A stretch of DNA of 64,000 nucleotides from Bacteroidota bacterium (GTDB lineage: Bacteria; Bacteroidota; Bacteroidia; Bacteroidales; VadinHA17): positions 199,027 to 263,026 of the forward strand of contig JADKBL010000003.1 of NCBI GenBank assembly GCA_016718875.1, in the 5' to 3' direction. The notes below the pieces were generated by a model. The model searched no databases. It worked only from the letters and a program-made list of their open reading frames with translations, and had not been told where the DNA came from. Numbering within the stretch: position 1 is the first letter of the stretch; every line of letters begins with the position of its first letter. This document shows positions 23,928 through 56,757 of this stretch, in pieces. The translations under genes were made by a program, and so were the position numbers.

Positions 23928-23958
23928 GATAAAACAAATAAAAAACCCCGCAGGGGTT
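23928..23958 (-). terminator. Rho-independent terminator after the alpha/beta-hydrolase gene
   Basis: The minus strand reads AACCCC-TGC-GGGGTT then TTTTTATTTGTTTT, starting at the stop codon. Confidence 0.6.
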
Positions 23959-26072
23959 CATTTAAGCTTTGCAGGACGGTCCCTCCCGGGATCACCACAG
24001 GTAATCCCCCTCTCCACAACAATCTTCCTCCCGGCCAGCAATAACTCAAGATCAGGCAGATCATAGTACTTAAGCACACAGGGTACGATCACTCCAAGAT
24101 TATCAGGTGTAAAGTGTGTTCTGACTATAGTTTCCCAGGAATCCAGTGTATTCATGAGATATACTTTTGAGAAACCGCCATCTATTAAAGCTGCATGTAT
24201 AGCTGCCGGTCCGGCTTGATCCGAAGCAAAAAGTTCTGTACTACTATCTGTTTTCAGCACCGTTCGCAGGTAGTTCCTTGCAATTACCATATCTTCAGCC
24301 CTGTAGCCAAGTAATGTCTTACCTGCGTAAATGGGAAGTTTTGCCACAAAAAACTCATAATTTAACTGTGCACCGTTTTCTGGTGTCCTCAGCTCCCCTG
24401 TATTTGTCACATCCACAACCATTACGGCATAACCTTCACTTATTTTCTGAAAAATAAATTTTTGGTTTTTCGAGATCTCATTCATTTTTCCGAAACAACC
24501 TGAAATAATTATTGTCGGATTTCCTTTGATCCTGATCTTTCCAGGTTTGATTATCAGTGCCGGTAATTTTAGATTCCTGTCCCGGTTAATGAGATGCTTC
24601 TCAATCTTAAGTCCTTCCCAATTAAAGGTACCTTCATAACTGCCGCCATTAATATTGCCCGGATTTTGATATCCAATCAGTTCAGCAGCTTTCTCAGATA
24701 TCTCAGAACCTGTACTATTTTCTAAAAACTCCATTTTCTTCTTTCTGACCTGTTCCAGCATTTCAACTGCATAATCAAGGATGCTTTTTTCTCCTTTAAA
24801 ATATGACAATACCTGTCCAGTAGCAGTGACATATGTTTCCTTCAAAGGGATCAAAGGATATCTCAGAGTATCTGCATCAATAACAGACGAATCACCTTTC
24901 AGCCACCAGTTCATCCACCGCACATTTGCCTCGAGTGAAACCTGTGGCATTCCATGATCGCCCGGAGCAGCAAATTGTCTTGTTCGCTCAGCTGCACCGA
25001 GGACTTTATACATTTCATGAAGTTCAGAAGCTGCAGTCTTTGATCCTTTATATGAAAAGAAATCATCATATGTTGAAAGGATCTGAACCGGCATTGGTGC
25101 AGACATGAAAAGGAAATCCTGCTCTTCAATTCCGGCTTTTCCTTCTGAATAAAGTTGCTGGCATCCATCCTGACTTCCGATCGTGCGGAACTTTTCTTCA
25201 GTGGTTGCAATGTAACTGCTGGGGACAGATACTTTTATCCTTGGATCGAGGGGTGCAAGATAAGTTGCCTGGGTTCCTCCGCCCGACAGTCCTGTTATAC
25301 CTATTTTTGTCACATCAACCTCACTCCTGCTGCACAGATAATCAATACTTCTTATATTATCCCATGCTTCCCATGCAACCATTGTCGAGCCAAGCAGGAG
25401 TAACTTCTCATTATATAGTTCATGCTGACTTGTTGTGCTCTGACATAATGAGTTCCCAATGACATCAGGGTACTTCCCCTGTAAAATCTGACATCTCTCT
25501 CCCTGGCAGACAGGGTCAACCTGCAGTACCACATACCCGTTTAATGCAAAGTATCTTCCGATTGTCTGATAAACACCTCTCCCCTTTGCATCATATGAAT
25601 GTCCTGGCATATGCAGAACAGCGGGAAATGGTCCTTTCCCTTTTGGAAGATAGAGCAGTGCTGTAACATGATGATTTGGTCTGCTTTCAAATGCTACTTT
25701 CTCGACAACATATTTTTCATTTTCAATTTTTCCTGTTACAAGCGGATTAAGAGGTGTTTTCTCAGGAAACGGCCCCAGCAATTTTATGTATTCCGCCTTG
25801 ATTTTATCGAGATATAAGATCAGCTTCTCCCGTGATTTCAGGCTCTCTGCCACTCTTTTTCTCCTTGAATCAAATTGCTCCTTCAGTATTCCGTTCAGGA
25901 AATAATTATACTGGACCGAATCAAGCTTCCCTGAAAAAAGATACGACTCACTGAGAGGAATCAGATCGGGAATTTTTATGGGAGAAATCTGACCCTGCAA
26001 TAACTGCATCGAAACAAATGCTAAAATCAAAGCAAATGAAGATCCAGTAATTCTTTTGTTTATCTCTTTCAT
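23958..26072 (-). CDS. Secreted alpha/beta-hydrolase (acetyl-xylan-esterase/peptidase S9-like fold)
   Basis: 704 aa with a signal peptide and the nucleophile elbow GLSGGG. The region before the elbow reads PFPAVLHMPGHS. Substrate is unknown. Confidence 0.6.
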   Translation of the reverse strand: MKEINKRITGSSFALILAFVSMQLLQGQISPIKIPDLIPLSESYLFSGKLDSVQYNYFLNGILKEQFDSRRKRVAESLKSREKLILYLDKIKAEYIKLLGPFPEKTPLNPLVTGKIENEKYVVEKVAFESRPNHHVTALLYLPKGKGPFPAVLHMPGHSYDAKGRGVYQTIGRYFALNGYVVLQVDPVCQGERCQILQGKYPDVIGNSLCQSTTSQHELYNEKLLLLGSTMVAWEAWDNIRSIDYLCSRSEVDVTKIGITGLSGGGTQATYLAPLDPRIKVSVPSSYIATTEEKFRTIGSQDGCQQLYSEGKAGIEEQDFLFMSAPMPVQILSTYDDFFSYKGSKTAASELHEMYKVLGAAERTRQFAAPGDHGMPQVSLEANVRWMNWWLKGDSSVIDADTLRYPLIPLKETYVTATGQVLSYFKGEKSILDYAVEMLEQVRKKKMEFLENSTGSEISEKAAELIGYQNPGNINGGSYEGTFNWEGLKIEKHLINRDRNLKLPALIIKPGKIRIKGNPTIIISGCFGKMNEISKNQKFIFQKISEGYAVMVVDVTNTGELRTPENGAQLNYEFFVAKLPIYAGKTLLGYRAEDMVIARNYLRTVLKTDSSTELFASDQAGPAAIHAALIDGGFSKVYLMNTLDSWETIVRTHFTPDNLGVIVPCVLKYYDLPDLELLLAGRKIVVERGITCGDPGRDRPAKLK

Positions 26073-26100
26073 ACGATAGTTTCAAAATACTTTACAGCTC

Positions 26101-27951
26101 CTAATCCGATCCCCAGCCTGAACTCTTTATGTTTTCAACCGGGATAAGTGTAAGCGACCTCAGATACATCAGCCAGGAATCACTGACATCCTTTGGCCTG
26201 ATTTTCACAGTAAAATTTCCAGATGAAGTAAGTTCGGCATAACCAACAGGAAACTCCTGAAATTCAAACAACTCCCCGGTGCAGCTTACAGTTCTTTCAA
26301 ATCGCTTATCTCCTATAAATATTTCAAATTTCATCCCTTCCCATTCCCGCGGTGCCGAATAGGAAATATCTAATCTGAATTTGCCGGGCTTGTCAGCACT
26401 GACAATCCATTCTGCAAAATCTTCAGGACCCTTCCATTTTGATATATGAAACCCGCCTTTCCGGTTGAAACGTGTAACTGCATTCCCGTGAGTTATTGCA
26501 TTCAGACAGGTCAGTTCATATTTCCCGTTTTCTCCGGGTCTTACTGGTTGCGGATCAACTTCAAGAGGCCCTTCTGTCTCAAGTACAATAACAGACAAAG
26601 GATAATCCGGCGGTGCATCAGGAAGCTCAATGCTTACATTTTTCTCATTCACTTTAACTGACAGCTTTACATCTCTTTCATTCAGAGGATAAACCATAGT
26701 GATTTTATTTTTCAGACCCGTAATATTCAGAACTCCATCAGTTGGCCAATCCCGGATAAAGAGATATAGTTTATTTTCTTTAACCGTACAGTAACCCCAT
26801 GGCAATTCCCCGAACGGACTTGATTCAGTTCCGTAAATTGCCTCTCCGTTCCTCTCAATCCACGATCCTGCTTTATTTAGAATATCGACTGTTGCTGACG
26901 GAATTTCGCCACTGCCTTTTGGTCCGATATTCAGAAGAAAGTTACCCCCCCTGCTCACAATTTCCACAAGCCTCTGAATAACAGTCGCCGGACTTTTCCA
27001 GAGTGTGTCATATTTGCTGAAGCCCCATGTTGTATTTAGTGTCATAGGAGTTTCCCAGTACTCTTCAATACCACCCGCAGGCATTCCGTTGTCACTCATG
27101 CTCTGATAATCGCCTATGAACTCCTGATCATAATGACCAACTCTTCCGTTTATCAGAGTTGATGGCTGCAGATCATGAACAAGCTTTACAAACTCCAGTC
27201 CCTGTTCCGGTGTATACATTCCGCGGTCGAACCAGACAAGTCCCACAGGACCGTAAGCGGTTAGCAACTCCCTTAACTGAGGTTTGGCTTTCTCTTCAAG
27301 ATAATTATCAAATTTCTGATGATCATAAAAATCCGGGCCCCGGTCATTATCATAATCCCAGTCATTGCCATAGCCCCCCGGATGATCCCAGTCCTCACGA
27401 TGTGAATAATAAACACAGAATTTGATACCTGCTTCTTTGCAGGAAATCGACAATTCTTTCAGAGGATCCCTTTTGAAAGGAGTCCAGTCAGATATATTGT
27501 ATTCTGAAGCTTCGGAATGATACATTGCAAATCCATCGTGATGCTTTGCAGTTATAACAATGTATTTCATTCCGGCACGTTTTGCAAGACTGACAATTGA
27601 GTCTGCATTGAACATAACAGGATTAAAGCTATGGGCAAGATCACGGTATTCCTGAGCCGGGATCTTAAGTTCCTTCATGATCCATTCAGCATTTTTCCCG
27701 ACAGGCACTCTCTGTCCTTTATATTCCCCTGCCAGCTGAGAATATGGTCCCCAGTGAATGAACATCCCGAATTTCGCCTCTTTGAACCAGTCGAGGCGGT
27801 GAACATCTTCCGTTTCAGATTGACTGATATCCTTAGTGCCCGATTTATTGTCAATTAAGTTTTTACACCCGGACAGAATCATCAATTGGATACTTAAAAA
27901 GAGAAGACACAATTTAAAAAGTCTGGTCAGTGAAAAGAAGGGTTTATTCAT
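26101..27951 (-). CDS. Alpha-L-fucosidase (GH29) with C-terminal beta-sandwich domain
   Basis: 616 aa with lipobox ILSGC and the GH29 hallmarks WFKEAKFGMFIHWGPYS and KHHDGFAMYHS. Confidence 0.88.
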   Translation of the reverse strand: MNKPFFSLTRLFKLCLLFLSIQLMILSGCKNLIDNKSGTKDISQSETEDVHRLDWFKEAKFGMFIHWGPYSQLAGEYKGQRVPVGKNAEWIMKELKIPAQEYRDLAHSFNPVMFNADSIVSLAKRAGMKYIVITAKHHDGFAMYHSEASEYNISDWTPFKRDPLKELSISCKEAGIKFCVYYSHREDWDHPGGYGNDWDYDNDRGPDFYDHQKFDNYLEEKAKPQLRELLTAYGPVGLVWFDRGMYTPEQGLEFVKLVHDLQPSTLINGRVGHYDQEFIGDYQSMSDNGMPAGGIEEYWETPMTLNTTWGFSKYDTLWKSPATVIQRLVEIVSRGGNFLLNIGPKGSGEIPSATVDILNKAGSWIERNGEAIYGTESSPFGELPWGYCTVKENKLYLFIRDWPTDGVLNITGLKNKITMVYPLNERDVKLSVKVNEKNVSIELPDAPPDYPLSVIVLETEGPLEVDPQPVRPGENGKYELTCLNAITHGNAVTRFNRKGGFHISKWKGPEDFAEWIVSADKPGKFRLDISYSAPREWEGMKFEIFIGDKRFERTVSCTGELFEFQEFPVGYAELTSSGNFTVKIRPKDVSDSWLMYLRSLTLIPVENIKSSGWGSD

Positions 27952-28168
27952 ATTTCTAATATTAATGAATAAATGAATATCTAAAAACCATTAACATATA
28001 TTCAAAAATCGCTTGAAAATCAATTAAATATTTTCTTCGATTACTGATATTCATAATTTATTAAATTTAGTAATATTCAGGTAAATATTATTGCCTTATA
28101 ACACCTTCGATGAATATTTTTCTAATTTTAAATTGACTTATAATGATAAATAAAATTACAATTTGAAT

Positions 28169-29008
28169 ATGATATTAACAGACAATATTCATCTGTTACA
28201 GATTGATTTTGAAATAGCTATAAGCCCTGAGAAAAATCTTCCCCGATTTGTAAATGTAATTCTGATTTTTGGAGAAAAGATCACCCTCATTGATACAGGA
28301 GTAAAGGGTAGCCACGAAAAGATCTTTGAGTACATAAAACAAAACAACAGGGATTACAATGAAATTGAAAGAGTGATATTATCTCATTCCCACCCCGATC
28401 ATATTGGTTCTGCGTGTAAAATCAAGGAGCTGACAAATTGTAAGATCCTTGCTCATAAATATGAGGCAGAATGGATTGAAAACATTGAGATTCAGAACAT
28501 GCAAAGACCAGTTCCGGGTTTCTTTAATCTTGTCGATCAGCCGGTTAAAATTGATGTTTTATTAAAAGGCGGAGAGGAATTGAAGATCAGCAAAGATGTT
28601 ACCTTACAGATAATTAATTCGCCTGGACACTCCCGAGGATCGGTAAATATTGAGTTCATGGAAGATCATATCCTCTTTACGGCTGATTCTGTACCCCTGA
28701 AAAATGACATCCCGAATTATGACAGCTATAAGGAGCTGATGGTTTCTCTGAAAGCCATAAAAGAGAATACCCGCTGCAATACACTTCTCACATCCTGGAC
28801 ACCTCCGTTAAGATTCAGATCAGAAATTGAAAATTTAATTTCTGAAGGTGAGGAGTATATTAAGAAGATAGACCGGGCGGTTCAGGAAACATATACCGGT
28901 CAGGAATCAGAACCATTTCAATTCTGCCGGAGAACAATAGAGAAGCTGGGATTGCCGCCCTTCCTTGCCAATCACATTACAGACAGGGCATTCAGAAGTC
29001 ATATTTAA
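28169..29008 (+). CDS. MBL-fold metallo-hydrolase
   Basis: Contains the HSHPDH zinc motif. I place the start at the ATG at 28169. The ORF-track start at 28163 is a TTG. Confidence 0.8.
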   Translation: MILTDNIHLLQIDFEIAISPEKNLPRFVNVILIFGEKITLIDTGVKGSHEKIFEYIKQNNRDYNEIERVILSHSHPDHIGSACKIKELTNCKILAHKYEAEWIENIEIQNMQRPVPGFFNLVDQPVKIDVLLKGGEELKISKDVTLQIINSPGHSRGSVNIEFMEDHILFTADSVPLKNDIPNYDSYKELMVSLKAIKENTRCNTLLTSWTPPLRFRSEIENLISEGEEYIKKIDRAVQETYTGQESEPFQFCRRTIEKLGLPPFLANHITDRAFRSHI

Positions 29009-29022
29009 ATCATTTTAATACC

Positions 29023-30156
29023 ATGAAGAAGTTAATCTTTTTACTAATAAGCCTGTTTCTGATCGAAGCAGTAAGCGGCCAGGAGATGTACAGGCTGCCG
29101 GAAAATACTTCAACCAGATGGGCAAGTGCCGAGAACTGGAAAGCAGAAAAAGGCAAGGGAGGAATGAGAAACGGCGGACGGAAGGGTTCTCCATGTTATA
29201 CACTTAAAGCCGGGGCAACACAGATACTCGCTGAATCATCCGGTTCGGCCGGCATAGTAAGAAGGATATGGATTACAATCGACAAACGTACACCAAAAAC
29301 GCTCAGAGGTATTAAGCTCGAAATGTTCTGGGATGAAGCCAAAACTCCTGCCGTTTCTGTTCCGCTGGGTGATTTCTTCGGACAGGGACTTGGTGAGATG
29401 AAAGCTTTTGAAAATGACTTTTTCTCAAGTCCTGAAGGGAGAAGCTTCAACTGCTTTATCCCGATGCCTTTCAGAAAAAGCATGAAAATACAGGTCACAA
29501 ATATCAGCGATGAAAATATTGTGATGTTCTATGATGTAGATTATACCCTGGGCGACAAGCTTGATAAGGATGTCCTCTATTTTCATGCCTTCTTCAATCA
29601 TCAGGAAAAGACAATTCCCCGATCTGACTATGAAATTATTCCGAAACTAAACGGAAGGGGCCGTTTTCTGGGAGTGAACTTCAGTGTGATAGCAAATATG
29701 AATAATTATCTGACAACCTGGTGGGGAGAAGGTGAAGTAAAAATGTATGTTGACGGCGACACAGATTACCCTTCACTCAGCGGAACAGGGACTGAAGATT
29801 ATATTGGAACAGGATACGGACTGGGTGAATACTGTCACCGCTACCAGGGTTGTACTTTTGCTGATCATAAGGGCATGCGATTTGCTTTTTACCGCTACCA
29901 TGTTCCCGATCCCGTAATATTTTACAGTGATCTGAAAGTTACAATCCAGCAGATCGGTTTTACAACAGACAAGAAAGTTATGGAACAACTATCCGGACTG
30001 GGTAAGCCAATAATAGCCACAGGTGAAAAACCGGAACCAATCGACTTTTCAGTCCCCCATAATTATATAATGTTTGAGAGAAGTGATGACTATGCAAGCT
30101 GCGCCTATTTCTATCTTTCTGAACCGGAGAATAAACTTGTAAGGCAGCCATTCTGA
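29023..30156 (+). CDS. DUF2961 / GH172-like glycoside hydrolase
   Basis: 377 aa with a signal peptide and a double jelly-roll-like sequence containing GTGTEDYIGTGYG, as in DUF2961 proteins. Confidence 0.7.
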   Translation: MKKLIFLLISLFLIEAVSGQEMYRLPENTSTRWASAENWKAEKGKGGMRNGGRKGSPCYTLKAGATQILAESSGSAGIVRRIWITIDKRTPKTLRGIKLEMFWDEAKTPAVSVPLGDFFGQGLGEMKAFENDFFSSPEGRSFNCFIPMPFRKSMKIQVTNISDENIVMFYDVDYTLGDKLDKDVLYFHAFFNHQEKTIPRSDYEIIPKLNGRGRFLGVNFSVIANMNNYLTTWWGEGEVKMYVDGDTDYPSLSGTGTEDYIGTGYGLGEYCHRYQGCTFADHKGMRFAFYRYHVPDPVIFYSDLKVTIQQIGFTTDKKVMEQLSGLGKPIIATGEKPEPIDFSVPHNYIMFERSDDYASCAYFYLSEPENKLVRQPF

Positions 30157-30179
30157 TAAAAAGGTAATCCTGAATGGGG

Positions 30180-30244
30180 ATCTGAGTTACTCCGGATTAC
30201 CAACAGGCAGATTGCTTTGTCCCGCCCCGGCGGGACAAAGCAAT
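30180..30244. repeat. 36-nt conserved core followed by a 14-bp GC-rich hairpin (copy 1)
   Basis: The core is ATCTGAGTTACTCCGGATTACCAACAGGCAGATTGC. The hairpin is ATTGCTTTGTCCCG...CGGGACAAAGCAAT. Copy 2 is at 31508-31577. Confidence 0.8.
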
Positions 30245-30599
30245 GACCTTAGCGGCATCAGGCTGCGTCTGCGCCCTCTGCTTCAGCTTTTCCGCATTTT
30301 TATTTCCCCCTTTTTTTTTCCTTCCCGTTTCTTAAATTTGTACAATTATTTTGGGGTACTATACTGAGGAGACACTTTGATGAGGCTTTGACTGCTTTGT
30401 TGGTGATGAATATTTAGGAGTTACTAATTGTAGAAATCAATAAAGGAAAATTATTTCTCTGGAATTAAGAATATGATTTTCACATCTCTCTAACTATCTT
30501 GGACGGGCTCTTTCAGTGAGATTTCAAGATAAGTACAGATACTTAGAATCCATAATTTTACACTAACTTCAGAACCTATCATTTAATCTCTAAACGTTA

Positions 30600-31275
30600 A
30601 AGTATGAGGACATGTCGAAAGGGCAAAACTTTTATGAGATGCTAGACGTCTTATACATTTTGACACTATAATGTTCATAAAATTGACCCTGAAGCTATAA
30701 AGGAGGATCCTGACTTCTTTATGGCAAATTACCAATTAGGTATGTACTTTGTTACCAGGGGATATGATAACCCTAAATTCAGAGATGAGAATGCGGTCAA
30801 GTCAAACAAATTGAGTAAGGAGGTGTACTTAAAGATTGTATGTCAAATTTATTTATCATGAGACAAAACAATGATCTTATTCGAATTGATAAGCCTGACG
30901 ACATAAAAAAGGGAGTTATAATAATGGGAAAAACTTCTTAAATTATATCCCAACGATATTAATGCTTATTTTCAATTATTTATTTTCAAAGAATTGTTTA
31001 ATGACCTTGAAGGTCAAATAATAACCTTAAATGCCGCACTTAAAATAACACAAAATCCAGCTTTTTATTATTGGAAACTTGGATATGCAAATTTGTACCT
31101 TGAGATGCTGAGCTTTGTTTTGAAGGAGGTGTGATTTAAAATGCTTAGAAAGTTTAGAATGCCAACAAAATAGATACCTTATGGAGCTATAAAAAAGCAT
31201 TAAACGCAAAAGAACTTCTATTGACAACAGTCGTGGACATTGACAGGAATGTTTACAAAACAGTTAAATGGATTA
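30600..31275 (+). pseudogene. Gene debris: TPR-like and FISUMP-like fragments with stops and frame changes
   Basis: Short plus-strand readings include KIDPEAIKEDPDFFMANYQLGMYFVTRGYD, YPNDINAYFQLFIFKE...AFYYWKLGYANLYLEM and TTVVDIDRNVYKTVKW (compare the Fibrobacter-type paralogous domain motif DIDGNVYKTVKIG). None lies in an ORF of meaningful length. Confidence 0.35.
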
Positions 31276-31507
31276 GGGGGGTAGGGACGGGGGGGGGCTC
31301 TGTGGGAGATTTTTTTATGCAGATCTCTCTTGTTAACCACTCCCCTCTGAGGTTTGTAAAAGTTCATTGGAGCATGGGAACGGTTCTGTCAAGACTTGCC
31401 TGTTCCCGGTCGCATTGGTTTACCCTTTATATTTGCGTATTCAAATTCAGAATCGCTATTAAAGGCAATTGTTTGGGAAAAGAAAGCCAGCAAATTCGTA
31501 ACTTAGT

Positions 31508-31577
31508 ATCTGAGTTACTCGCGATTACCATCAGGCAGATTGCGAGTCAGGCTTCGGCTTCGCTCAGCCTGACTCGC
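31508..31577. repeat. 36-nt conserved core followed by an 11-bp hairpin (copy 2)
   Basis: The core is ATCTGAGTTACTCGCGATTACCATCAGGCAGATTGC, matching copy 1 at 33 of 36 positions. The hairpin is GCGAGTCAGGC-TTCGGCTTCGCTCA-GCCTGACTCGC. Confidence 0.8.
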
Positions 31578-31680
31578 CTCCAAGTATGTTAAAAACCCTA
31601 AAAAAACTCCATATCCCGTTCCGGCTGTGTAATTATTCCATTATTTGTCTTTAGTTTTATATCCCGAACAAAATTCAGTA

Positions 31681-34149: not shown

Positions 34150-34154
34150 TTAAC

Positions 34155-47910: not shown

Positions 47911-47911
47911 A

Positions 47912-48778: not shown

Positions 48779-48779
48779 A

Positions 48780-51209
48780 TCAGAATGATTTTATAATAAT
48801 CTCTTCACCTTTTTTAGTATCCCTGACAATTTCACCTTCCGGTGTCACAATAGTGAGCTTATTTCCGGCCTCACTTATTATTCTCACATTTTCGATTTTG
48901 CCGTTTCTCATTCTGGCACTTATCAGGAAAGCACCGGCAGCCCTCAGGTTATGAAACTCAGCATCCTTTTCTGCGGGCCACTTCGGGAAGAGACGGATAC
49001 TCCCGTTGTAGCTCTGCATCAGGCATTCATTGATGACGACAGGAAGTGCAAAGTTTTCGAACCACACACCCATATGATCCATGAAGCCATAATTCCCGAA
49101 ATCGTTATACCTGCCATGAACCTGCATTGCCCGATCGGCTGCAGTTCCATTTGGAAGAAGCGAATAGTTTATCTGTCTCTTGAATTTTTCAAGGTCAAGC
49201 ATTCCAATCCTGGCTGCCTGCAGGTTCTTAAATACAAGATCATTGCCCCCTTCATTCTGCTGATTAAGAAATGTATTTTTCACAAGTTCAATCGTTTCCG
49301 GATCGGAATGAAGTCCATGATCCTCTCCCGGGAAAACCGATATCAGGGCATTTGGGACATTGTAAACTACCTGGTCGTGCTCACCCGGTACTGATACTAT
49401 CACCTTCCCGAATTTTGACGACTGAGCTGTGGGGTATTCCGGGAAATTGGCAAGTATATCAGTTACATCGGAAAGAAGGGAAGCCTCAGTCTCCTTAAGT
49501 TCAAGGACTTTTACCGCTTCCAGGTATGCTTTGAAGATGAATTTTATAAGAGTGAGATCGACTGTGCAATCATAGTTGTACTTAAATCCGGGCCTCAGTG
49601 CATACAGCTCAGGTGGGATTGTGGGGAATACATGGTACTTTTCATCGTTCCACTGCGGACCCCTGGCTTCCGGTCTTTTCATATAAGCTACCAGAAACTC
49701 AACAGACTCTTTTATTGGCTGATATCCCCTGTTTTTAAGATACTCCTTATCGCCCGAATAGAGATAGTGCCACCATAATCCCTGAACTGCCCACGGGGTT
49801 TCACAAATTTCCCAGCCCCAATGAGGAACAGGGTATGGATTCATTGTCATATCAACAGGATAACCGGTATGAGGAAAATATGCCCCCGGAAGGTTATAAT
49901 ACTCCTTTGCCCATCGCCGGCTAACATCCATAAGGAATTCAATAAGGCTGACATAAGAGAGATTCTTTTCAAGATGATTGCTTGAGAATGTCACCCAGAA
50001 AGGCTGCTGGGTATTGTAATTCATATGATAATCGCCATGCCATGCGGTCCCGATATTATTATAACTCCAGTTGGCAAAGAGCCCGGGAGTGGTAACACCC
50101 TCTTTAACTGCACAATTAAGGAAATAAAGATTGTTATACCAGATCCGTTCAAGGAATTCATCCTGAAGAGCAACCCCCGATTTGTTCCAATACTCTTTCC
50201 AGATCAGAGTACTCTTTTCAAGAGATGATTCAAAATCCATAACAGCAGGTTCAGGAAGATTATCCGGAACCTCCGGAAGAGAAGAATTCAATCCCTCCTC
50301 AAGAGATACATAGCCGGTAAAACCTGATTTATCAGTGATGGATGCTTCAAGTTTCCCCATGCTCTCCTGGTTACCATCCCAGTTTATCCTTGAGGTTTTA
50401 ACAAGATCTGATTTTACTTTTACTGCCAGTGAAAATGCCTTATCTTTCGGGTGGCCTTTTTTCAGGTCATACTCATCCGGTTCCTGGTAAGGAAGAACCT
50501 GTCTGAATGAAAGGGCTCCTGCAGTGAGATCTTCCATGTAACTGTAAGCAGGAAATTCCTTAGGTGTTGATGGATCTGGCATAACACGTACTCTGTCAAA
50601 AATACTTTCAGCAGGATTTCCGTTTTCGTCTGTGAGCCTCATCCAGAGTTTATCACTATTAAGGTCAGTAAACAGACGGAGTGTTAATTTCTTCTTTTCA
50701 CTTGTTAAAAGATATACTTCGCACAGACCATTGGAAATATCAAGTTTGTGCCCCAGAAGTTCAGCATTTCTCAGGTCAAATCCCAAAAGGACAGACCCAC
50801 ATGGAAATGGCCTAGGGTATGGCTTTCTGTAATTTTCGGCTGCCATTATACTGTATTCTGCATACCAGGGATCATCAGTCAGAAGTGCCAGAGTATCAGA
50901 TATTGATTTTACTTTATTGAAGACATAATCAAATGTCTTTACCTTTTCCCTGTTATCCTCAGCTACTCGTATATCCCAGACATTATTATGTCCGAAATAA
51001 ATTACAATCGCATCAGGACGGGTAGTAACAACTGCACCTATGCCTCCGTTGCCCAGCAGTGCCCCGTCGAAGAAGTCAATTGCAGGCTTGTTCAATCCTA
51101 TCGAATGCAGCCTGGCACGGTCGAAAGATGAGAAATCATCTCTGGATGAATCCTTACTGCAACCGGTAAGGAAAAGAGCAATAAGAATCGAAAGAAGAGT
51201 TTTTTTCAT
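48780..51209 (-). CDS. Lipoprotein glycoside hydrolase, GH95-like (alpha/alpha)6 fold
   Basis: 809 aa with lipobox LTGC. The N-terminal LLGNGGIGAVV and the central GDYHMNYNTQQPFW resemble the GH95 N-domain and the NxNxQMxYW catalytic-region motifs. Confidence 0.55.
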   Translation of the reverse strand: MKKTLLSILIALFLTGCSKDSSRDDFSSFDRARLHSIGLNKPAIDFFDGALLGNGGIGAVVTTRPDAIVIYFGHNNVWDIRVAEDNREKVKTFDYVFNKVKSISDTLALLTDDPWYAEYSIMAAENYRKPYPRPFPCGSVLLGFDLRNAELLGHKLDISNGLCEVYLLTSEKKKLTLRLFTDLNSDKLWMRLTDENGNPAESIFDRVRVMPDPSTPKEFPAYSYMEDLTAGALSFRQVLPYQEPDEYDLKKGHPKDKAFSLAVKVKSDLVKTSRINWDGNQESMGKLEASITDKSGFTGYVSLEEGLNSSLPEVPDNLPEPAVMDFESSLEKSTLIWKEYWNKSGVALQDEFLERIWYNNLYFLNCAVKEGVTTPGLFANWSYNNIGTAWHGDYHMNYNTQQPFWVTFSSNHLEKNLSYVSLIEFLMDVSRRWAKEYYNLPGAYFPHTGYPVDMTMNPYPVPHWGWEICETPWAVQGLWWHYLYSGDKEYLKNRGYQPIKESVEFLVAYMKRPEARGPQWNDEKYHVFPTIPPELYALRPGFKYNYDCTVDLTLIKFIFKAYLEAVKVLELKETEASLLSDVTDILANFPEYPTAQSSKFGKVIVSVPGEHDQVVYNVPNALISVFPGEDHGLHSDPETIELVKNTFLNQQNEGGNDLVFKNLQAARIGMLDLEKFKRQINYSLLPNGTAADRAMQVHGRYNDFGNYGFMDHMGVWFENFALPVVINECLMQSYNGSIRLFPKWPAEKDAEFHNLRAAGAFLISARMRNGKIENVRIISEAGNKLTIVTPEGEIVRDTKKGEEIIIKSF

Positions 51210-51382
51210 AATTAGTTTAAAGTTTTACATCGCCCATTTCATTTCCGTCAGTCTGATAATTGTCTTTTTTAAAGGAATGTGTTACTAAAACAGATGTTTT
51301 CATGCTAAATATAAAGAAATTATGTGTTAAATTTAAATGTGATAATTTTGTTTATCTGAACTACTTACCTGAAATTACAGAC

Positions 51383-52576
51383 ATGAATAAGATGAATCAT
51401 TCAAAATCACTTGGAAGAAGGGAATTCCTTCAGAAAAGTTCCATGGCAGCTTTGTCAGTTCCTATTCTGAATTTTTATAACTCTGATACCCAAAAGAAGA
51501 AAAGTCAGGAGCAGGTGAAACAGGAATGGAAAAACAAGCAGGAAGGCATGGTTTACAGGCAGCTTGGAAGGACCGGTCTTATGGTTTCAGAACTGGTTTT
51601 CGGAACCGAAAGGAATAATCCGGATAATACACGACCTGTGGAGCTTGCGTTTGAAAAAGGCATCAATTATTTCGACACTGCTCCATCATACAACAAAGGA
51701 TTGGCTGAAGCTACACTGGCAAAGGTATTTAACACCCCATCAAAAAGGGATAAAGTTTTTATTGCAACAAAGGTTACTCCATTTTATACAACCAGAAACA
51801 GACTGTACAAGGAGATATTTGATAAGCTTCAGGCCTCAGAACAGGAAAAAATTATGACTAAAGCCAAAAGGCTCCGGCTGGAAAGTGGAATTGAAAAACC
51901 TGAATACTTCATGGTCTACTGGCCGGGTCAGCAACAGCAGATGGATGGAGCTTTTATAAGTGATGCCATGAAGGAGGAATATGGCGACAGGGTTGAAAGA
52001 AGTCCCGAACTAAAAAATGCCATAGTAAAAAGCGTTGAAGAATCACTTCAGAGAGCCGGTACCGACTATTTTGATGTTCTCCATTGCCCTCATGCCGCCG
52101 CAACTTCTGAAGAGATAAGGAATCCATTGATCATTGAGACGTTTAATGAACTCAAAAAGCAGGGCAAGGTTCGTTTCCTTGGCTTCTCCTCTCATCATGG
52201 AATGGGCGAACTGATCAAAACAGCAATTGAACTTGAATATTTTGATGTGATAATGCTGGCCTATAATGTTATAAATCATGCTTTCCTTGATCATATTCTT
52301 ACTGCTGCCAGGGAAAAAGGTATCGGACTGATAGCCATGAAGGCAGCAATGGCTGTTGCAACTCCGTATGATCCCATCCAGGTCCCGGTGCCGGAATGGA
52401 GAGTCAGCAAGCTCAACAAAATAATTCCGGAAGAGATGAAGCTGCAGGTAAAAGCATTCCTGTGGGCACTTCAGAACCAGGATCTTTCTGCAGTTAATGC
52501 CGGCATGTTTACTGAAGAAATGGTCCTTGAGAACCTGACCGCTGTTGGAAGGAAAATTGAACTTAATCTGGCATAA
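51383..52576 (+). CDS. Aldo/keto reductase with twin-arginine (Tat) signal
   Basis: I place the start at MNKMNHSKSLGRREFLQKSSMAALS (ATG at 51383). The AKR core includes GINYFDTAPSY and FLGFSSH. Confidence 0.82.
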   Translation: MNKMNHSKSLGRREFLQKSSMAALSVPILNFYNSDTQKKKSQEQVKQEWKNKQEGMVYRQLGRTGLMVSELVFGTERNNPDNTRPVELAFEKGINYFDTAPSYNKGLAEATLAKVFNTPSKRDKVFIATKVTPFYTTRNRLYKEIFDKLQASEQEKIMTKAKRLRLESGIEKPEYFMVYWPGQQQQMDGAFISDAMKEEYGDRVERSPELKNAIVKSVEESLQRAGTDYFDVLHCPHAAATSEEIRNPLIIETFNELKKQGKVRFLGFSSHHGMGELIKTAIELEYFDVIMLAYNVINHAFLDHILTAAREKGIGLIAMKAAMAVATPYDPIQVPVPEWRVSKLNKIIPEEMKLQVKAFLWALQNQDLSAVNAGMFTEEMVLENLTAVGRKIELNLA

Positions 52577-52587
52577 GGTCAGTCTGA

Positions 52588-55434
52588 TCAGTTATTGGCT
52601 GACAAAGACCTTATCCGGCTTAACTCAACCTCTGTTTCAGGACTGAATTTCTGCGAATTCATATATTCAAGTATCGAACTCAAAAGCTGTTTCGAGACAA
52701 TCCTGTCTTCAGCCATGTTCTTCATATCAATGCTGCAGACAACAATTTTGCCTCCTCCCGTTTTTGCCTCAAATGCAAGTGCCAGCTTCCTGTTTTTGAA
52801 CCAGTCATCAATCGGCTGGATTATTGGTTTGACAGAAACGGGGAAACCGTCAATATTCATAGCCTGCGAATGAGCCACCGGATCCCACCATTGCCAGTTG
52901 CTGTGATATTCGGTGGGGAAACTGCCAAATGCAGGATGTTCCGGATCGCATAAAATGCCCAGTGTATGTGGTGGTTGATTGTTTGTCCAGGCTGTATTCC
53001 AGAAGATGCTTGAAAATCCGATTGCCACCTCAGCACCCTTCCCTTTTGCAACTTTTCCATAAGGTAGATACAGTACTGATCCGCCTTTCTTAAGTGCCGA
53101 TACAGCCGATTGATCAAGCTTGTCTGTTATCAGAACGGAACCGGCTTCAGGACTTTTAGCTGCAGGATATACCCAGATATCCCAGCTGTTATGATAAGGT
53201 GTATTTTCAACAGAGACATCAAATCTAAGTTTCGTTGGTTCAGTAATCTTCTCAAAACCGAATTCGAATGATCCTGTCGGAATACAATTCCCGATTCCGA
53301 TTGAAGCTATTTCTGTTTTCTGTGTTGTAATGGTGTCATTCCTGCTGCTTATCAGTCTGCAGGCTATAACAGAGTTTTCTATTGCCGATCGTCCGAAATT
53401 GGCAATCTCTATCTCCGCTCTAAATGATTCATTGTTACTGAAAACATGCTTCCTTATCCTTGCCAGAGGAACAACAGGATTGCAGAACATTCTGAATTCC
53501 CCGGGTGTAACGTATCCTTTTGATTCAAAGAAGGGATTGAGGATACCAACAAGAGCTGACCCCTGCCCGGGGAAATCGTGCAGCTGCAGAAGATGGAATC
53601 CTGCAAAACCCGGAGTTCTCAGCGCCGCCTCTATATCAGCCTTATAACATAATGCCTGCAGCTTCCCCGAGGCCATAAGAAAATCCTCAGCCTGCTCACC
53701 CATACCCTTTTCCTGAAGTGATTCTCTGAATATTTCAAAATTCCTTGCCTTAAGCACCCCTGTATATTTATCAATCTCTTTAAAATCGGGATATGCACAC
53801 CACTGTCCTATTTCATGACTTACAACCGGAATGCTATATCGTGAGATTATATCCCTGTAATCATACATTGTCTGGGGAGCCTCATGGTTGATTATGCTTT
53901 TTAGGCCTCCACCCCAGGCCTGTATCCTTGGTTCAGGTGAAAGATTGTACTCATTCTCGGGAATGAATGGCCAGCCGGCAGCTGATGTATAAAGATGCCT
54001 GTTATCCTTTGCCTTCCAGTATGTCAGCAGCTTTCCCAGGTAGTCGCTTTGTTTGCTTCCGGCAGGCTCGTTTCCATAGGCAAGCATACAAAATGAAGGA
54101 TGATTGCCGTAGGCTTTGAGAATCCTGTCACCTTCCCTGTAGATATATTCATCGATAATTCCACCTTCACCCAGTTGCGTTCCCTGGTTGGCCCATGATG
54201 AACACTCGATATGAAAGTACATCCCGAGCTTATCAGCAGCAGCAAATGCTGCTTCAGGCGGACACCACGAATGAAACCTGATGGTATTCAAACCGTAATC
54301 TTTGCAAGTCTGAAGAACCTTTTCCCATGATCCTTCATCTGTTGGCGGATAGCCTGTCAGAGGAAAGATACAACATTCAAGGGTGCCTCTCAGAAAGACA
54401 GGAAGTCCGTTTATTTCAAACCGGGTTCCGGCAGCTCTGAATTCCCTCATCCCAAAGTCGCTCTTTTTCACCTGTATCACTCTTCCTTCATGATCTCTCA
54501 GGGTAGCCTCAAGGGTGTAAAGAGATGGTGAGAATTCATCCCATGTCTGAAATTCTTTTCCCATGGGATAATGGATAACGAGCTGAAACTCGCCAGCTTC
54601 TGATACAGCCAGAACACTTTTTGCCTTTACCTTAACGGAACTATTATTACTTACTCCATTCGCTTTCAGGACTATTCTTCCGTTAAATCCTTTCCCCGAT
54701 TTATTCTGAACCGATATTATAACTTTTGCCTTCTTATTCTTAATATCAGGGTAAATAGCAATATCATCAATACAGACTGCAGGTGATGAGTTGAGGCTGA
54801 TCTTTCCTGCAATTCCATTCCAGTTCGACTGGGTATGATCGCTTACACTGTGAGAGTTGACACCGACAGGTACCACCATATCATTATTTACACGGATATT
54901 TATCCTGTTTTTCCCGGCAACAAGAAAATCAGTTATATCATAGTTGTGGGCAACAGCAAGACTGTTCTGCGTTCCTGCTTCCTTTCCATTTACAAAGACT
55001 TTTGTCTCCCAGTGGGGTCTTTCAAGAAACAAAAAAATTCTCTGGCCATTGAACTCCTGAGGTAATTCAAACTCTTTCTGGTACCAGGCAACTCCCCTGT
55101 AATATTTAACCGGCTGCAGCCAGAACGGCACCTTGAAATTTCCGGGTTGCCTGTACCTCTCATATTTCTTCTCCGTAAAGAATGACCTGTCTATTATGTC
55201 TCCTGTCCAGTTTGTTCTGAGTGATACATCATTACCCTTTCCGTTTTCAGCCATTGAGCCCGGAAGCTTAACAGTCTCATTCAATTCTGTTTCATACCAT
55301 TTCTCAGCAACTCCCTGGTCGAGTGAATCAATCCGGAATTTCCATTCTCCTGCAAGTGAGATACTATTTAATTTATCCTCCCTGCTACCGGCACATGATG
55401 TCAGTACCAGCAAAAGAAATAACAGTTTTTTCAT
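52588..55434 (-). CDS. GH2-family glycoside hydrolase
   Basis: 948 aa with lipobox LTSCAG. The sugar-binding domain reads WYQKEFELPQEFNGQRIFLFLERPHWETKVFVNGKEAG. The TIM barrel carries NTIRFHSW and the acid/base motif AYGNEP. Confidence 0.85.
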   Translation of the reverse strand: MKKLLFLLLVLTSCAGSREDKLNSISLAGEWKFRIDSLDQGVAEKWYETELNETVKLPGSMAENGKGNDVSLRTNWTGDIIDRSFFTEKKYERYRQPGNFKVPFWLQPVKYYRGVAWYQKEFELPQEFNGQRIFLFLERPHWETKVFVNGKEAGTQNSLAVAHNYDITDFLVAGKNRINIRVNNDMVVPVGVNSHSVSDHTQSNWNGIAGKISLNSSPAVCIDDIAIYPDIKNKKAKVIISVQNKSGKGFNGRIVLKANGVSNNSSVKVKAKSVLAVSEAGEFQLVIHYPMGKEFQTWDEFSPSLYTLEATLRDHEGRVIQVKKSDFGMREFRAAGTRFEINGLPVFLRGTLECCIFPLTGYPPTDEGSWEKVLQTCKDYGLNTIRFHSWCPPEAAFAAADKLGMYFHIECSSWANQGTQLGEGGIIDEYIYREGDRILKAYGNHPSFCMLAYGNEPAGSKQSDYLGKLLTYWKAKDNRHLYTSAAGWPFIPENEYNLSPEPRIQAWGGGLKSIINHEAPQTMYDYRDIISRYSIPVVSHEIGQWCAYPDFKEIDKYTGVLKARNFEIFRESLQEKGMGEQAEDFLMASGKLQALCYKADIEAALRTPGFAGFHLLQLHDFPGQGSALVGILNPFFESKGYVTPGEFRMFCNPVVPLARIRKHVFSNNESFRAEIEIANFGRSAIENSVIACRLISSRNDTITTQKTEIASIGIGNCIPTGSFEFGFEKITEPTKLRFDVSVENTPYHNSWDIWVYPAAKSPEAGSVLITDKLDQSAVSALKKGGSVLYLPYGKVAKGKGAEVAIGFSSIFWNTAWTNNQPPHTLGILCDPEHPAFGSFPTEYHSNWQWWDPVAHSQAMNIDGFPVSVKPIIQPIDDWFKNRKLALAFEAKTGGGKIVVCSIDMKNMAEDRIVSKQLLSSILEYMNSQKFSPETEVELSRIRSLSANN

Positions 55435-55452
55435 AAAAAGTATAATTTAGAT

Positions 55453-55505
55453 TCTCCGCATCTCCGCCTCACCTCTTCTCCCAGTCTCCCAGTCTCCCCC
55501 TCACC
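55453..55505. repeat. TCTCCSNN octamer array
   Basis: Reads TCTCCGCA TCTCCGCC TCACCTCT TCTCCCAG TCTCCCAG TCTCCCCC TCACC. It runs into the stop codon of the gene at 55501. Confidence 0.8.
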
Positions 55506-56757
55506 TTATCTCCCTTAGCGCTTCAAGCATCGCCACAACATTCCTGAACGGAACATTTGCCTGTACATTATGGATTGCATTGAATACAAATCCCCCGTTA
55601 TTGTTAAGGATTTCACACTGCTTTCTGACCTGTTCCCTGACCTGCTCAGGTGTACCGAAAGCAAAAGCTCCCTGTGTATCAACTCCTCCTCCCCAGAAAA
55701 CGAGCTTGTCGCCGTATTTCTTTTTAAGCACCACCGGATCCATTCCGAAGGCATTGATCTGCACGGGGTTGATGATATCGAATCCTGATTCAATGAAGTT
55801 ATTCATAAGCGATTCAACTGCTCCGCATGAGTGTTTGAATGTTTTCCAGTTTGTATTTGCATGAATCCAGTCATTTACTTTCCTGTAATATGGCAGCCAT
55901 AATCTGTCGTAGGTCTCTCCTGAACAGAAGGTGGAGTTTTGTGTCCCGAAATCAGTTCCGCAGGTGAAAACTACATCAAGCTTATCACCGATTACAGCAT
56001 GGTATCTTTTGAGGTTTTCAATTGCAATATCTGTTTGCCTGTCATAAAGTTCCCTTACAAAATCTTCCCTCATCACAGTAGAGATGTACCACTCTTCTAC
56101 TCCCCTTATACCTTTTGGGTCCTTAAGCTGCATTGCCGGTACAAGGGCTATATCACCAAGTGCTGTTCCTCCGAGAGAGGCGACAACTGCCTTGTTTGCA
56201 AAGGCTGCCTCATCGGCCTGTTTCTTCCAGTACTGAAGGTCACTTTCAGTAACATACCCGAATTCTTCAAGGTTATCCTCTACTTTAAGAGTGGAATCAT
56301 CAACCGGCTTCTGCCTGTCGAGAGCATCGAAAAAATATCCGGTCTTGGGCATCATTGCTGTTGGCGGATATAAGGTATCACCTTCCGGATAAATCAATAT
56401 ATCACCGTTATCATTGTATTTATAGTTGAAATCCCCCGGAAAAAGAACTTCCTGTCCCCAATGGGTTTTGTGTACCTTCCAGTTCTCATTGGCAATGCCG
56501 AACATGTTTTTAAGTCCGTATAATCCTATCACATCAAGATCCATTGCTTTTACAAGCTCGGCATCGATCTCACCCAGCATCTGGTAAGGTTCAATTACCT
56601 TTACCGGGCGCTTTTCAAGACCATAATAATCACGAAGCTTTTCCACAATTAGCACATGTATGCCGGTTACCGCTGTTGATCCGAAATCAACCACAACCCT
56701 GTCGGGCTGCTGGTGATTGATTGTCTTCAGAAAATTTTGTTTTGAGGATGATGACAT
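55501..56757 (-). CDS. URO-D-family TIM-barrel protein (function unknown; MtaA/CmuA/HemE superfamily)
   Basis: I place the start at MSSSSKQNFLKTINHQQPDRVVVDFG (ATG at 56757). The sequence then runs ...FKHSCGAVESLMNNFIESGFDIINPVQ... Confidence 0.72.
   Translation of the reverse strand: MSSSSKQNFLKTINHQQPDRVVVDFGSTAVTGIHVLIVEKLRDYYGLEKRPVKVIEPYQMLGEIDAELVKAMDLDVIGLYGLKNMFGIANENWKVHKTHWGQEVLFPGDFNYKYNDNGDILIYPEGDTLYPPTAMMPKTGYFFDALDRQKPVDDSTLKVEDNLEEFGYVTESDLQYWKKQADEAAFANKAVVASLGGTALGDIALVPAMQLKDPKGIRGVEEWYISTVMREDFVRELYDRQTDIAIENLKRYHAVIGDKLDVVFTCGTDFGTQNSTFCSGETYDRLWLPYYRKVNDWIHANTNWKTFKHSCGAVESLMNNFIESGFDIINPVQINAFGMDPVVLKKKYGDKLVFWGGGVDTQGAFAFGTPEQVREQVRKQCEILNNNGGFVFNAIHNVQANVPFRNVVAMLEALREIR

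Follow-up and report, generated by a model that had tools for sequence, protein, structure and literature searches.

A Mannose-family phosphotransferase core, candidate for amino-sugar uptake, within a mosaic glycan-degradation island of a Bacteroidota bacterium

Glycan use in the Bacteroidota is framed almost exclusively in terms of SusC/SusD loci that work with permeases in the inner membrane and kinases in the cytoplasm. A 2026 review on glycoside transporters approaches the phylum via its SusCD systems. The phosphotransferase system (PTS) has been stated to be absent from Bacteroidetes (PMC2405797) and Bacteroides species have been stated to lack the mannose PTS (PMC6671954). Here we analyze a 64-kb stretch of a metagenome-assembled Bacteroidota genome (contig JADKBL010000003.1; hereafter the window, in whose positions all coordinates are given) that encodes a Mannose (Man)-family PTS inside a 33-kb group of mostly glycan-related genes (the island, 23958-56817). 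On the basis of gene content and conservation we lean, without great confidence, towards the view that the PTS and its conserved neighbors form a self-contained module for amino-sugar uptake and catabolism that would operate without SusC/SusD. The accessory glycoside hydrolases (GHs) of the island belong to a separate gene set.

The (GlcN)2 chitobiose catabolic operon of the Vibrionaceae (VC0615, PBPRA0520, VP2484) resembles this core in that a GH9 enzyme of the same subgroup, about 50% identical end to end to the GH9 module of the window and with the same exo-type loops and Asp/Asp/Glu catalytic residues, has genetic linkage both with a PTS and with the catabolism of amino sugars. The Vibrio GH9 enzymes, however, have no export signal and are thought to act in the cytoplasm after import of the disaccharide by the PTS, whereas the Bacteroidota orthologues are exported; furthermore, the PTS found here is of the Man family with fused IIC and IID, and two of the three GH9 residues facing C2 differ. 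In enterobacteria, ManXYZ with NagB and AgaBCD/AgaVWEF with AgaI combine the same IIA, IIB, IIC and IID set (IID being unique to the family) with a following enzyme of the NagB/AgaI family. Our system differs from these in the IIC-IID fusion, in the presence of Enzyme I (EI) and HPr in the operon, in its failure to reach the NCBIfam cut-offs, and in a Glu148-to-Gln substitution in the NagB-like protein.

Sus-type polysaccharide utilization loci (PULs) and the SusCD-less carbohydrate-active enzyme (CAZyme) clusters in PULDB likewise consist of clustered exported GHs, many of them lipoproteins, but here SusC/SusD, the hybrid two-component system (HTCS) and the ECF sigma/anti-sigma pair are missing, and group translocation replaces a major facilitator superfamily (MFS) permease and a kinase. 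A further link is to NagX, a transmembrane acetyltransferase that five bacteria need in order to use glucosamine, as RB-TnSeq has shown (Price et al. 2022, PMC9007349): a NagX-like gene (HGSNAT/DUF5009) adjoins the core in 10 related loci, an indication that glucosamine occurs there as a periplasmic metabolite. In the NagX route GlcN is acetylated and NagA is required; the window lacks NagX, and a route through the PTS and the NagB-like protein would bypass acetylation. Lastly, the GH55 exo/endo-β-1,3-glucanases (PcLam55A 3EQN, 5M5Z, 8JHH) share with one part of the core a double right-handed β-helix of about 700 aa, but at 13-15% identity, with a second lobe that is modelled at low confidence, and with a fusion to a lactonase-like propeller that is not known in GH55.

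Each of these pieces thus comes from a known family, and what is unusual is their combination and the phylum that hosts it. The distinctive features are the fused IIC-IID, the system's own EI and HPr, the exported exo-GH9, the ThuA-like partners and the modified NagB. Database pipelines already name the core proteins, so the genes are unstudied rather than unseen: we found no description of a Bacteroidota PTS/GH9/ThuA cluster or of a 'chitosan utilisation locus' in the full-text literature, and no mention of such a cluster in the supplements of PMC9007349 or the text of PMC13440311.

The PTS and the gene that follows it are arranged as follows.

31681-36130, forward strand: PTS operon (EIIA, EIIB, fused EIIC-EIID, EI, HPr)
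31681-32085, forward strand: Man-family EIIA (Pfam EIIA-man PF03610, 60.8 bits; His motif LITSHG)
32078-32569, forward strand: sorbose/mannose-type EIIB (PTSIIB_sorb PF03830, 151 bits; motif RIDDRxxHGQ, here RIDDRFVHGQ)
32566-34149, forward strand: fused EIIC-EIID permease, 527 aa (EII-Sor PF03609, 244 bits; EIID-AGA PF03613, 330 bits)
34155-35867, forward strand: EI (PEP-utilizers N, mobile and C domains; motifs GGRTSHAAI and GTNDLCQY)
35864-36130, forward strand: HPr, 88 aa (PF00381, 88 bits; His15 motif GMHARPA)
36143-36880, forward strand: NagB/AgaI-like sugar-phosphate deaminase/isomerase (Pfam Glucosamine_iso PF01182, 61.8 against a cut-off of 27)

The start of EIIA was set from the conserved MRK/N start of its relatives. 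All Pfam domains of the PTS exceed their gathering scores, and the phospho-acceptor motifs, read from the sequences, are intact in EIIA, EIIB, EI and HPr; the system therefore looks complete and apparently functional. The Man-family-specific IID domain occurs alongside IIA-Man, IIB-sorbose and IIC, which is the domain set of the Mannose-family PTS (TC 4.A.6). A preliminary description of this DNA had recognized a Man-family PTS, correctly, but had missed its EI, its HPr and the fusion of EIIC with EIID, a fusion shared by all 80 related PTS loci described below and by the best 120 database matches. None of the characterized specificities (ManXYZ, AgaBCD, AgaVWEF, sorbose) is reached by the window proteins, every NCBIfam equivalog or subfamily score falling below its cut-off (ManZ-type 241 versus 365, AgaW 200 versus 300, AgaF 64 versus 130).

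The best PDB match of the NagB-like protein is NagB of B. subtilis (2BKV, E 4e-34). The NagB active site includes Asp72, His143 and Glu148 (E. coli numbering), of which the protein keeps the Asp (in NVDEL) and the His (in NGH). The surrounding motif reads NGHIGINQP in 71 of 71 orthologues, as compared with GHI(G/A)FNEP in five aligned solved NagBs.

Beyond the NagB-like gene, and on the opposite strand, lie the exported proteins of the core.

36902-37696, reverse strand: exported ThuA-like protein 1 (Pfam ThuA, 138 bits)
37718-38494, reverse strand: exported ThuA-like protein 2 (Pfam ThuA, 147 bits)
38511-43943, reverse strand: giant protein of 1810 aa (β-helix, SGL, ThuA, and CelD_N plus GH9 domains)
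41844-43943, reverse strand: giant residues 1-700, signal peptide and GH55-like double β-helix (Pfam Pect-lyase_RHGA_epim, two copies)
40959-41816, reverse strand: giant residues ~710-995, SMP30/gluconolactonase-like β-propeller (Pfam SGL; Foldseek matches to lactonases 8DJF, 3DR2, 7PLB)
40278-40934, reverse strand: giant residues 1004-1222, third ThuA-like domain (Pfam ThuA, 153 bits; PDB 4JQS, E 5e-27)
38511-40220, reverse strand: giant residues 1242-1810, CelD_N plus GH9 module of exo-β-D-glucosaminidase type (Pfam CelD_N, Glyco_hydro_9; PDB 3H7L, 6GDT, 5DGQ)

The GH9 module matches 3H7L, 6GDT (VC0615) and 5DGQ (PBPRA0520) over its residues 4-565, with phmmer E-values of 1e-118 to 1e-125. 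The Vibrionaceae enzymes are exo-acting β-D-glucosaminidases, with a preference for (GlcN)2 as compared with cellobiose and no cleavage of (GlcNAc)2, and their catalytic residues Asp140 (base), Asp144 and Glu546 (acid; VC0615 numbering, with roles as given in PMC6096475) are conserved in the module. The motifs DASGD and WRWSEQW are kept by the window protein and, apart from one sequence with a gap, by every one of the 47 PTS-linked GH9s that were aligned. Similarly, the extended α1-2 and α9-10 loops, which close off the -2 subsite and so impose exo action, are retained, with only single-residue gaps across VC0615 residues 112-162 and 404-442. In overall similarity, catalytic residues and exo loops the module thus agrees with the exo-β-D-glucosaminidase subgroup of GH9.

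Every stand-alone GH9 orthologue in the Bacteroidota loci has a signal peptide, so hydrolysis should precede uptake. The exported enzymes of the core carry SPI-type signals and have no match to Por_Secre_tail, which makes a periplasmic location probable. In other taxa the β-helix/lactonase-like, ThuA and GH9 parts are separate, adjacent genes, and in one Bacteroidales relative (L002) they are set apart by a stop codon together with a further signal peptide. The fusion of parts that are separate elsewhere argues that they act together.

The N-terminal ~700 residues of the giant protein are predicted to be GH55-like, with two tandem right-handed β-helix lobes. A PDB profile search returns GH55 3EQN (E 4e-15), and a Foldseek search with an AF2 model places 3EQN, 5M5Z and 8JHH at the top (E 3e-18 to 1e-12; target-normalized TM 0.54-0.56 over ~820 columns), the model having a mean pLDDT of 73.8 and being weak over residues 448-700. 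The three ThuA domains compare with a PF06283 cut-off of 33.4, and His, Asp, Glu and Trp residues that are invariant across 94 ThuA-like paralogues suggest an active site. We also considered that these proteins are mere carbohydrate-binding modules, as their fold is like that of Agd3 CBM87 and of a levan-binding SGBP domain; this is less likely, given that His, Asp and Glu are invariant as well as Trp. No biochemical function for the ThuA family was found in the literature.

To see which genes travel together, we compared 92 related loci in all (numbered L002 and so on). Of these, 80 are PTS loci from a scan with the fused EIIC-EIID, at 69-86% identity and with one genome per species; a GH5-based metagenome scan gave L082 and L086. 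The core was defined by tblastn with the window proteins and by clustering of 1251 ORFs from the loci. All 80 PTS loci are from Bacteroidota, their hosts being uncultured Bacteroidales, Mucilaginibacter, Pedobacter, Sphingobacterium, Hufsiella, Dyadobacter, Chryseolinea, Chitinophaga, Ferruginibacter and Puia. The numbers of loci with each neighbor are lower bounds, as many contigs end within the flanks.

PTS proteins: EIIA in 77/80 loci, EIIB in 78/80, EIICD in 80/80, EI in 79/80, HPr in 74/80
NagB-like protein: 74/80 loci
Exported GH9 adjoining the PTS: 51/80 loci
ThuA-like paralogues: 43/80 loci, 102 copies (paralogues of protein 1 in 43-48/80)
Double redoxin: 36/80 loci; absent from the window
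Reg_prop/Y_Y_Y/LuxR periplasmic sensor-regulator: 24/80 loci, Sphingobacteriales only
β-helix/lactonase-like protein: 18/80 loci
DUF4468: 16/80 loci
GH18: 14/80 loci
NagX-like acetyltransferase: 10/80 loci
Copper amine oxidase: 10/80 loci
SusC/SusD within 10 kb: 3-4/80 loci

In the window this core occupies about 12 kb (31.6-43.9 kb) and comprises the PTS, the NagB-like protein, the ThuA-like proteins and the giant protein. Its best-conserved member is the NagB-like protein, with 76-89% identity across loci. The double redoxin is an exported 377-aa thioredoxin-like protein encoded 3' of the NagB-like gene, also in the closest relatives of the window (L008, 14349-15470).

The other genes of the island show a different distribution. 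By tblastn, no homologue of the α/β-hydrolase, the metallo-β-lactamase-fold (MBL) protein, GH172, GH95, the aldo/keto reductase (AKR), the 428-aa protein or the second URO-D-like protein adjoins the PTS in the 80 loci, and GH29 and GH5 each have one weak match near it, at 25-27% identity. In L082 and L086, whose GH5 proteins are 85-86% identical to that of the window, the series GH2-AKR-GH95-UROD-GH5 stands beside the same asparaginase and tRNA-Ser without a PTS, and L086 carries the α/β-hydrolase as well; the intervening ~6 kb is taken up by unrelated genes and includes neither a PTS nor a NagB-like, ThuA or GH9 gene. Conversely, L003, L008 and L013 have the PTS core downstream of the same asparaginase without the GHs of this accessory arm. 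The asparaginase-tRNA-Ser(GGA) junction is common to all of these loci, with differing genes downstream, and in the window it marks the left edge of the variable zone.

23750-23838, forward strand: tRNA-Ser(GGA) (ARAGORN and Rfam)

Since the arm occurs without the PTS and the core without the arm, the island is not one locus. There is good support for the view that two or more gene sets, which occur independently of each other, have been joined in the window within a variable zone beside a tRNA gene, and the notion that all 33 kb are organized around the PTS has to be given up. GH29, GH172, GH5, GH43, GH95, GH2 and the α/β-hydrolase appear to be separate, lineage-variable, partly decaying sets that share one plasticity zone. 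As members of a separate variable set, the accessory GHs have no bearing on the substrate of the PTS, which also removes the earlier argument from GH29, GH43 and GH95 to a mixed or fucosylated substrate. In L082, a 240-aa ORF (14929-15651, reverse strand) with CarboxypepD_reg and Plug only represents a truncated SusC-like N-terminus, which hints that SusC was lost there.

The observation of a glycan island as such is confirmed by the gene inventory, which was drawn from the ORF listing with Pfam, NCBIfam and PDB searches. Of the 23 genes, about 12 are glycan-active (an α/β-hydrolase, GH29, GH172, three ThuA-like units, the GH55-like/GH9 giant, GH5, GH43, GH95 and GH2), and 11 of the proteins have Sec, lipoprotein or Tat N-termini as read by eye. 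The flanks are housekeeping: DprA, TatD, asparaginase and the tRNA-Ser(GGA) on the left, and HlyD, tRNA-Arg and LeuRS on the right. Twelve glycan-active genes in 33 kb between such flanks is far from chance.

The absence of SusC/SusD and of a regulator is likewise borne out. Among the ORFs of 100 aa or more across the whole 64 kb there is no match to Plug, TonB_dep_Rec or SusD, and no TonB-dependent receptor, HTCS, ECF sigma or other regulator domain except in MraZ and YebC; both of these lie far upstream of the island, and no regulator domain was found within 23958-56817. The only ORFs of at least 900 aa in the window are the giant protein, GH2 and LeuRS. The Man-family PTS is the sole transporter of the island, with no second one, as the preliminary description had stated. 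The island thus has neither the SusC/SusD pair nor the linked regulator by which Bacteroidota PULs are recognized. Three genes are damaged, namely GH43 (frameshift), the URO-D-like gene at 47912-48778 (deletion) and, just outside the island, an FtsX/MacB-type permease (fragments). Taken as a whole, the 33 kb amount to a CAZyme cluster of an ordinary kind, in part decaying, and the interest lies in the conserved PTS core.

For this core we propose the following route. Exported, probably periplasmic, exo-enzymes would trim oligosaccharides of chitosan, deacetylated chitin or fungal walls to the monosaccharide, the candidates being the GH9 of exo-β-glucosaminidase type, the GH55-like β-helix and the three ThuA-like domains, with fusion as the 1810-aa protein in this lineage. 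Glucosamine would then be imported and phosphorylated by the Man-family PTS, phosphate passing from phosphoenolpyruvate via EI, HPr, EIIA and EIIB to EIIC-EIID, and the NagB-like protein would turn the sugar-6-phosphate into fructose-6-phosphate and ammonia. It is the GH9 match, the NagB-family gene and the NagX-like, GH18 and amine-oxidase neighbors that point to glucosamine. We infer further that a GH55-like unit next to a glucosaminidase might fit the fungal wall, with its β-1,3-glucan and chitosan.

The amino-sugar target put forward earlier thus points the right way for the PTS, the NagB-like protein and GH9, where it is carried by the match of GH9 to exo-β-D-glucosaminidases; the arguments drawn from GH2 and GH5 fail. 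The GH2 protein, whose family had been noted to include glucosaminidases, is closest to 8U01 (1027 bits), with a nearly identical architecture, and there is no CsxA entry among its 60 best matches. 8U01 has been placed in GH2_20, the characterized members of which are β-galactosidases, while the CsxA-type glucosaminidases form GH2_16 with a distinctive SD motif (PMC12243196). The GH5 protein, whose family had been noted to include chitosanases, is closest to the TM1752 endoglucanase (1VJZ, 7.5e-85) and to the endomannanase/endoglucanase Man5B (3W0K, 2.3e-64), and its list of PDB matches contains no chitosanase.

Several points weigh against the glucosamine route. No recognized endo-chitosanase (GH46, GH75, GH80, GH8) or NagA is encoded in the window, nor an outer-membrane importer by which oligosaccharides would reach the periplasm. 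Of the three VC0615 residues directed at the 2-amino group, the GH9 module keeps Tyr148 but has the other two changed (Trp220→Phe, Tyr232→Leu); a second PTS-linked GH9 type, found in Mucilaginibacter, has His, Gly and a variable residue at positions 148, 220 and 232. Additionally, the Vibrio GH9 enzymes also hydrolyze β-glucosides (PMC6096475). The NagB-like protein falls below every NCBIfam NagB/AgaI cut-off (TIGR00502, 141.7 versus 236.9; NF001684, 189 versus 326), and the position of E. coli Glu148 is occupied by Gln in the window protein and in 71/71 orthologues, so that its deaminase activity is not assured. The NCBIfam scores also fail to separate Man-type from Aga-type specificity in the PTS. 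It could also be that the juxtaposition of core and arms has nevertheless led to their co-regulation in this organism.

A more far-reaching reading is that environmental Bacteroidota have in this core a phylum-wide, SusCD-independent PTS route for amino-sugar glycans, one that would process a substrate other than plain chitosan, such as N-modified or oxidized glucosamine from fungal or bacterial walls. This is a doubtful proposition, but one that we keep in view. It would involve the exported ThuA-like proteins, the GH55-like/lactonase-like unit, two new specificity variants of exo-GH9 and the Glu→Gln NagB-like protein, an assignment of enzyme types that we regard as equally doubtful. If it were true, the chemistry of the pathway would be new, as well as the transporter.

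A related and unlikely alternative is that the PTS takes up a different or N-modified amino sugar, with the Glu→Gln NagB-like protein acting as a specialized isomerase or deglycase. The candidates would be galactosamine (Aga-like), Heyns/Amadori N-substituted glucosamine (glucoselysine-like) or an amino sugar oxidized by the ThuA-like and lactonase-like domains. The invariance of the Glu148→Gln change and the altered residues around C2 in GH9 agree with this, as do the linkage of a copper amine oxidase in 10 loci and the tie of the ThuA family to 3-keto-sugar formation in rhizobia (PMC8121099). The best NCBIfam matches of IIA and IIC are AgaF and AgaW, and JGI names the EIID homologues 'fructoselysine/glucoselysine PTS EIID'; however, no equivalog score reaches its cut-off, and the JGI names were assigned automatically. 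Moreover, no SIS-type deglycase or tagatose-6-phosphate kinase/aldolase is present in the window and none recurs in the loci, and the catalytic machinery and overall similarity of GH9 favor plain β-GlcN.

The PTS could instead import glucose or mannose released from β-glucans by a GH55-like exo-β-1,3-glucanase, a GH9 exo-β-glucosidase and a GH5 acting on gluco- or manno-oligosaccharides, with some secondary or other role left to the NagB-like protein. Broad specificity is usual for Man-family permeases, E. coli ManXYZ among them, and the top-scoring models for IIB and IID are of the ManX/ManZ type; the GH55-like fold would suit such a diet, and cellobiose is also cleaved by the Vibrio GH9 homologues. 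This neutral-hexose explanation is nonetheless as unlikely as the previous one: a glucose system is hard to square with a NagB-like protein that exceeds the rest of the cluster in conservation (76-89% identity) and occurs in 74/80 loci, and the NagX-like, GH18 and amine-oxidase neighbors point to amino sugars.

Less likely again is that all 33 kb form one locus for a single GlcN-containing, fucosylated glycan with the PTS as its importer. The genes are contiguous, nearly all glycan-related and bounded by housekeeping flanks; GH5 stands beside the giant protein again in L083, and L006 has a URO-D-like gene and GH2 at most 8 kb from the PTS. Such an arrangement is contradicted by the accessory arm without PTS in L082 and L086 and by the core without arm in L003, L008, L013 and ~70 other loci, and the GH2 and GH5 subfamilies are unrelated to GlcN while GH43 and one URO-D-like gene are damaged. 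Finally, PTS components regulate transcription in other phyla and no regulator is encoded nearby, but a chiefly sensory or regulatory phosphorelay in place of a nutrient importer is highly improbable here, as the full membrane permease (fused IIC-IID) is the best-conserved part of the PTS, and neither a PRD/NtrC-type partner nor an upstream σ54-type promoter was found.

How the core that we favor as an amino-sugar module might be controlled is suggested by the region upstream of EIIA.

30180-31543, no strand: non-coding AT-rich spacer of 1.3 kb, ~37% GC, bracketed by a 36-nt direct repeat
31588-31647, forward strand: conserved upstream boxes of the PTS operon (GTTAAAAACnnTTAAAA at 31588-31607; AyTTATTnnTTATTTr at 31632-31647)

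The first box, GTTAAAAACnnTTAAAA, lies 93-106 nt before the EIIA ATG and the second about 45 nt further downstream, and both are shared, with unchanged spacing, by the window and six Bacteroidales relatives (L002, L003, L004, L008, L009, L013). This suggests a candidate promoter and operator, and as there is no regulator in the window, control by a factor encoded elsewhere. Above shuffled sequences, a scan for σ70 promoters and terminators found nothing in the 1.5-kb gap upstream of the PTS, and a search for σ54 -24/-12 elements gave fewer matches than chance, none of them upstream of the PTS. Rfam returned two tRNAs only, over the whole window at the gathering threshold and in the gap at E <= 1, and tblastn with 1251 proteins from the related loci revealed no hidden gene in 30157-31644. 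The two copies of the 36-nt repeat (30180-30215 and 31508-31543) are 92% identical, with none expected by chance, and each is followed by a GC-rich hairpin, the hairpins differing. With no credible ORF, no Rfam match and no homologue in the 92 related loci, the spacer with its repeats may represent a scar left by an insertion, or else a repeat element.

In Sphingobacteriales (L015, L028 and 22 other loci), a ~970-aa Reg_prop/Y_Y_Y/LuxR-HTH protein adjoins the PTS core, and in 19 Sphingobacteriales loci repeated GTAGTGG motifs occur upstream of the PTS. Protein and motifs are likely to be a lineage-specific regulator and its binding sites.

The accessory genes to the left and right of the core are the following.

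23958-26072, reverse strand: exported α/β-hydrolase (Pfam Abhydrolase_7, GCE_fung, AXE1; weak esterase/glucuronoyl-esterase-like matches)
26101-27951, reverse strand: GH29 α-L-fucosidase lipoprotein (Pfam Alpha_L_fucos, 284 bits), unlinked to the PTS in relatives
28163-29008, forward strand: MBL protein without signal peptide (Pfam Lactamase_B)
29023-30156, forward strand: exported GH172 (Pfam DUF2961, 230 bits)
44179-45303, reverse strand: Tat-exported GH5 of TM1752/Man5B type (Pfam Cellulase)
45420-46706, reverse strand: Tat-signal protein of 428 aa, of no known family (no Pfam, NCBIfam or PDB match)
46713-47857, reverse strand: GH43 lipoprotein, frameshifted (two overlapping ORFs, each matching part of Pfam GH43)
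47912-48778, reverse strand: URO-D/MtaA-like protein, internally deleted (Pfam URO-D)
48780-51209, reverse strand: GH95 lipoprotein (Pfam Glyco_hydro_95_cat, 112 bits)
51260-52576, forward strand: Tat-exported AKR, probable start 51383 (Pfam Aldo_ket_red)
52588-55434, reverse strand: GH2 lipoprotein of GH2_20 type (best PDB match 8U01)
55501-56817, reverse strand: second URO-D/MtaA-like protein, cytoplasmic (Pfam URO-D and NCBIfam MtaA/CmuA, both far below cut-off)

The α/β-hydrolase has its 81% identical orthologue in L086, in the absence of a PTS, and is missing from all 80 PTS loci. The 428-aa protein has a 96% identical orthologue adjoining GH5 in L081, the GH95 orthologues in L082 and L086 are 80-82% identical, and the AKR adjoins GH2 in both of these loci too. 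The nearest solved structure to GH172 is an exo-α-D-arabinofuranosidase (8IC8, E 1e-40). GH172, GH5, GH2, GH29, GH95 and GH43 give the impression of a set that trims the side chains of plant-type or mixed glycans. The GH43 frameshift is near 47207-47222, where there is no homopolymer, and may represent a real pseudogene or an assembly error. The URO-D-like protein at 47912-48778 is short by ~100 internal aa relative to its 387-aa and 391-aa orthologues in L082 and L006, has lost the conserved FQSDHS stretch and is probably inactive. Its type recurs beside GH95/GH5 in L082 and L086 and near GH2 in L006. Cytoplasmic URO-D/methylcobamide-methyltransferase-like proteins amid exported GH95 and GH2 are a curious feature, for which sugar O-demethylation is a guess.

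Outside the island, the decayed FtsX/MacB-type permease (17930-19980, reverse strand) is an ~800-aa protein left in pieces over several frames, as seen by tblastn, with 19163-19564 and 19561-19941 matching MacB_PCD. A tRNA-Arg(CCG) (58373-58447, reverse strand) overlaps the 5' end of the longest LeuRS ORF (58352-61273, forward strand), so the true LeuRS start is further downstream. At 5830-7684 (forward strand), unrelated to the island, adjacent Acyltransf_2 and GNAT-like Acetyltransf_5 genes presumably resemble the glycine- or ornithine-lipid synthesis pairs of Bacteroidota. The nearest relatives are uncultured Bacteroidales, in keeping with a Bacteroidetes-type FtsL gene that the window contains.

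For annotation, the lesson of this window is that a contiguous CAZyme 'island' can consist of independent modules side by side. For the biology of the phylum, the core ties a complete Man-family PTS to an exported GH9 of glucosaminidase type and is conserved across a phylum that is said to lack the PTS, with many of its carriers cultured and genetically tractable. Confirmation of the proposed route would mean that Bacteroidota glycobiology has a second logic of uptake, would give the ThuA-like proteins of these loci a role, and would be relevant to how chitosan and fungal necromass are turned over in soil and sludge.

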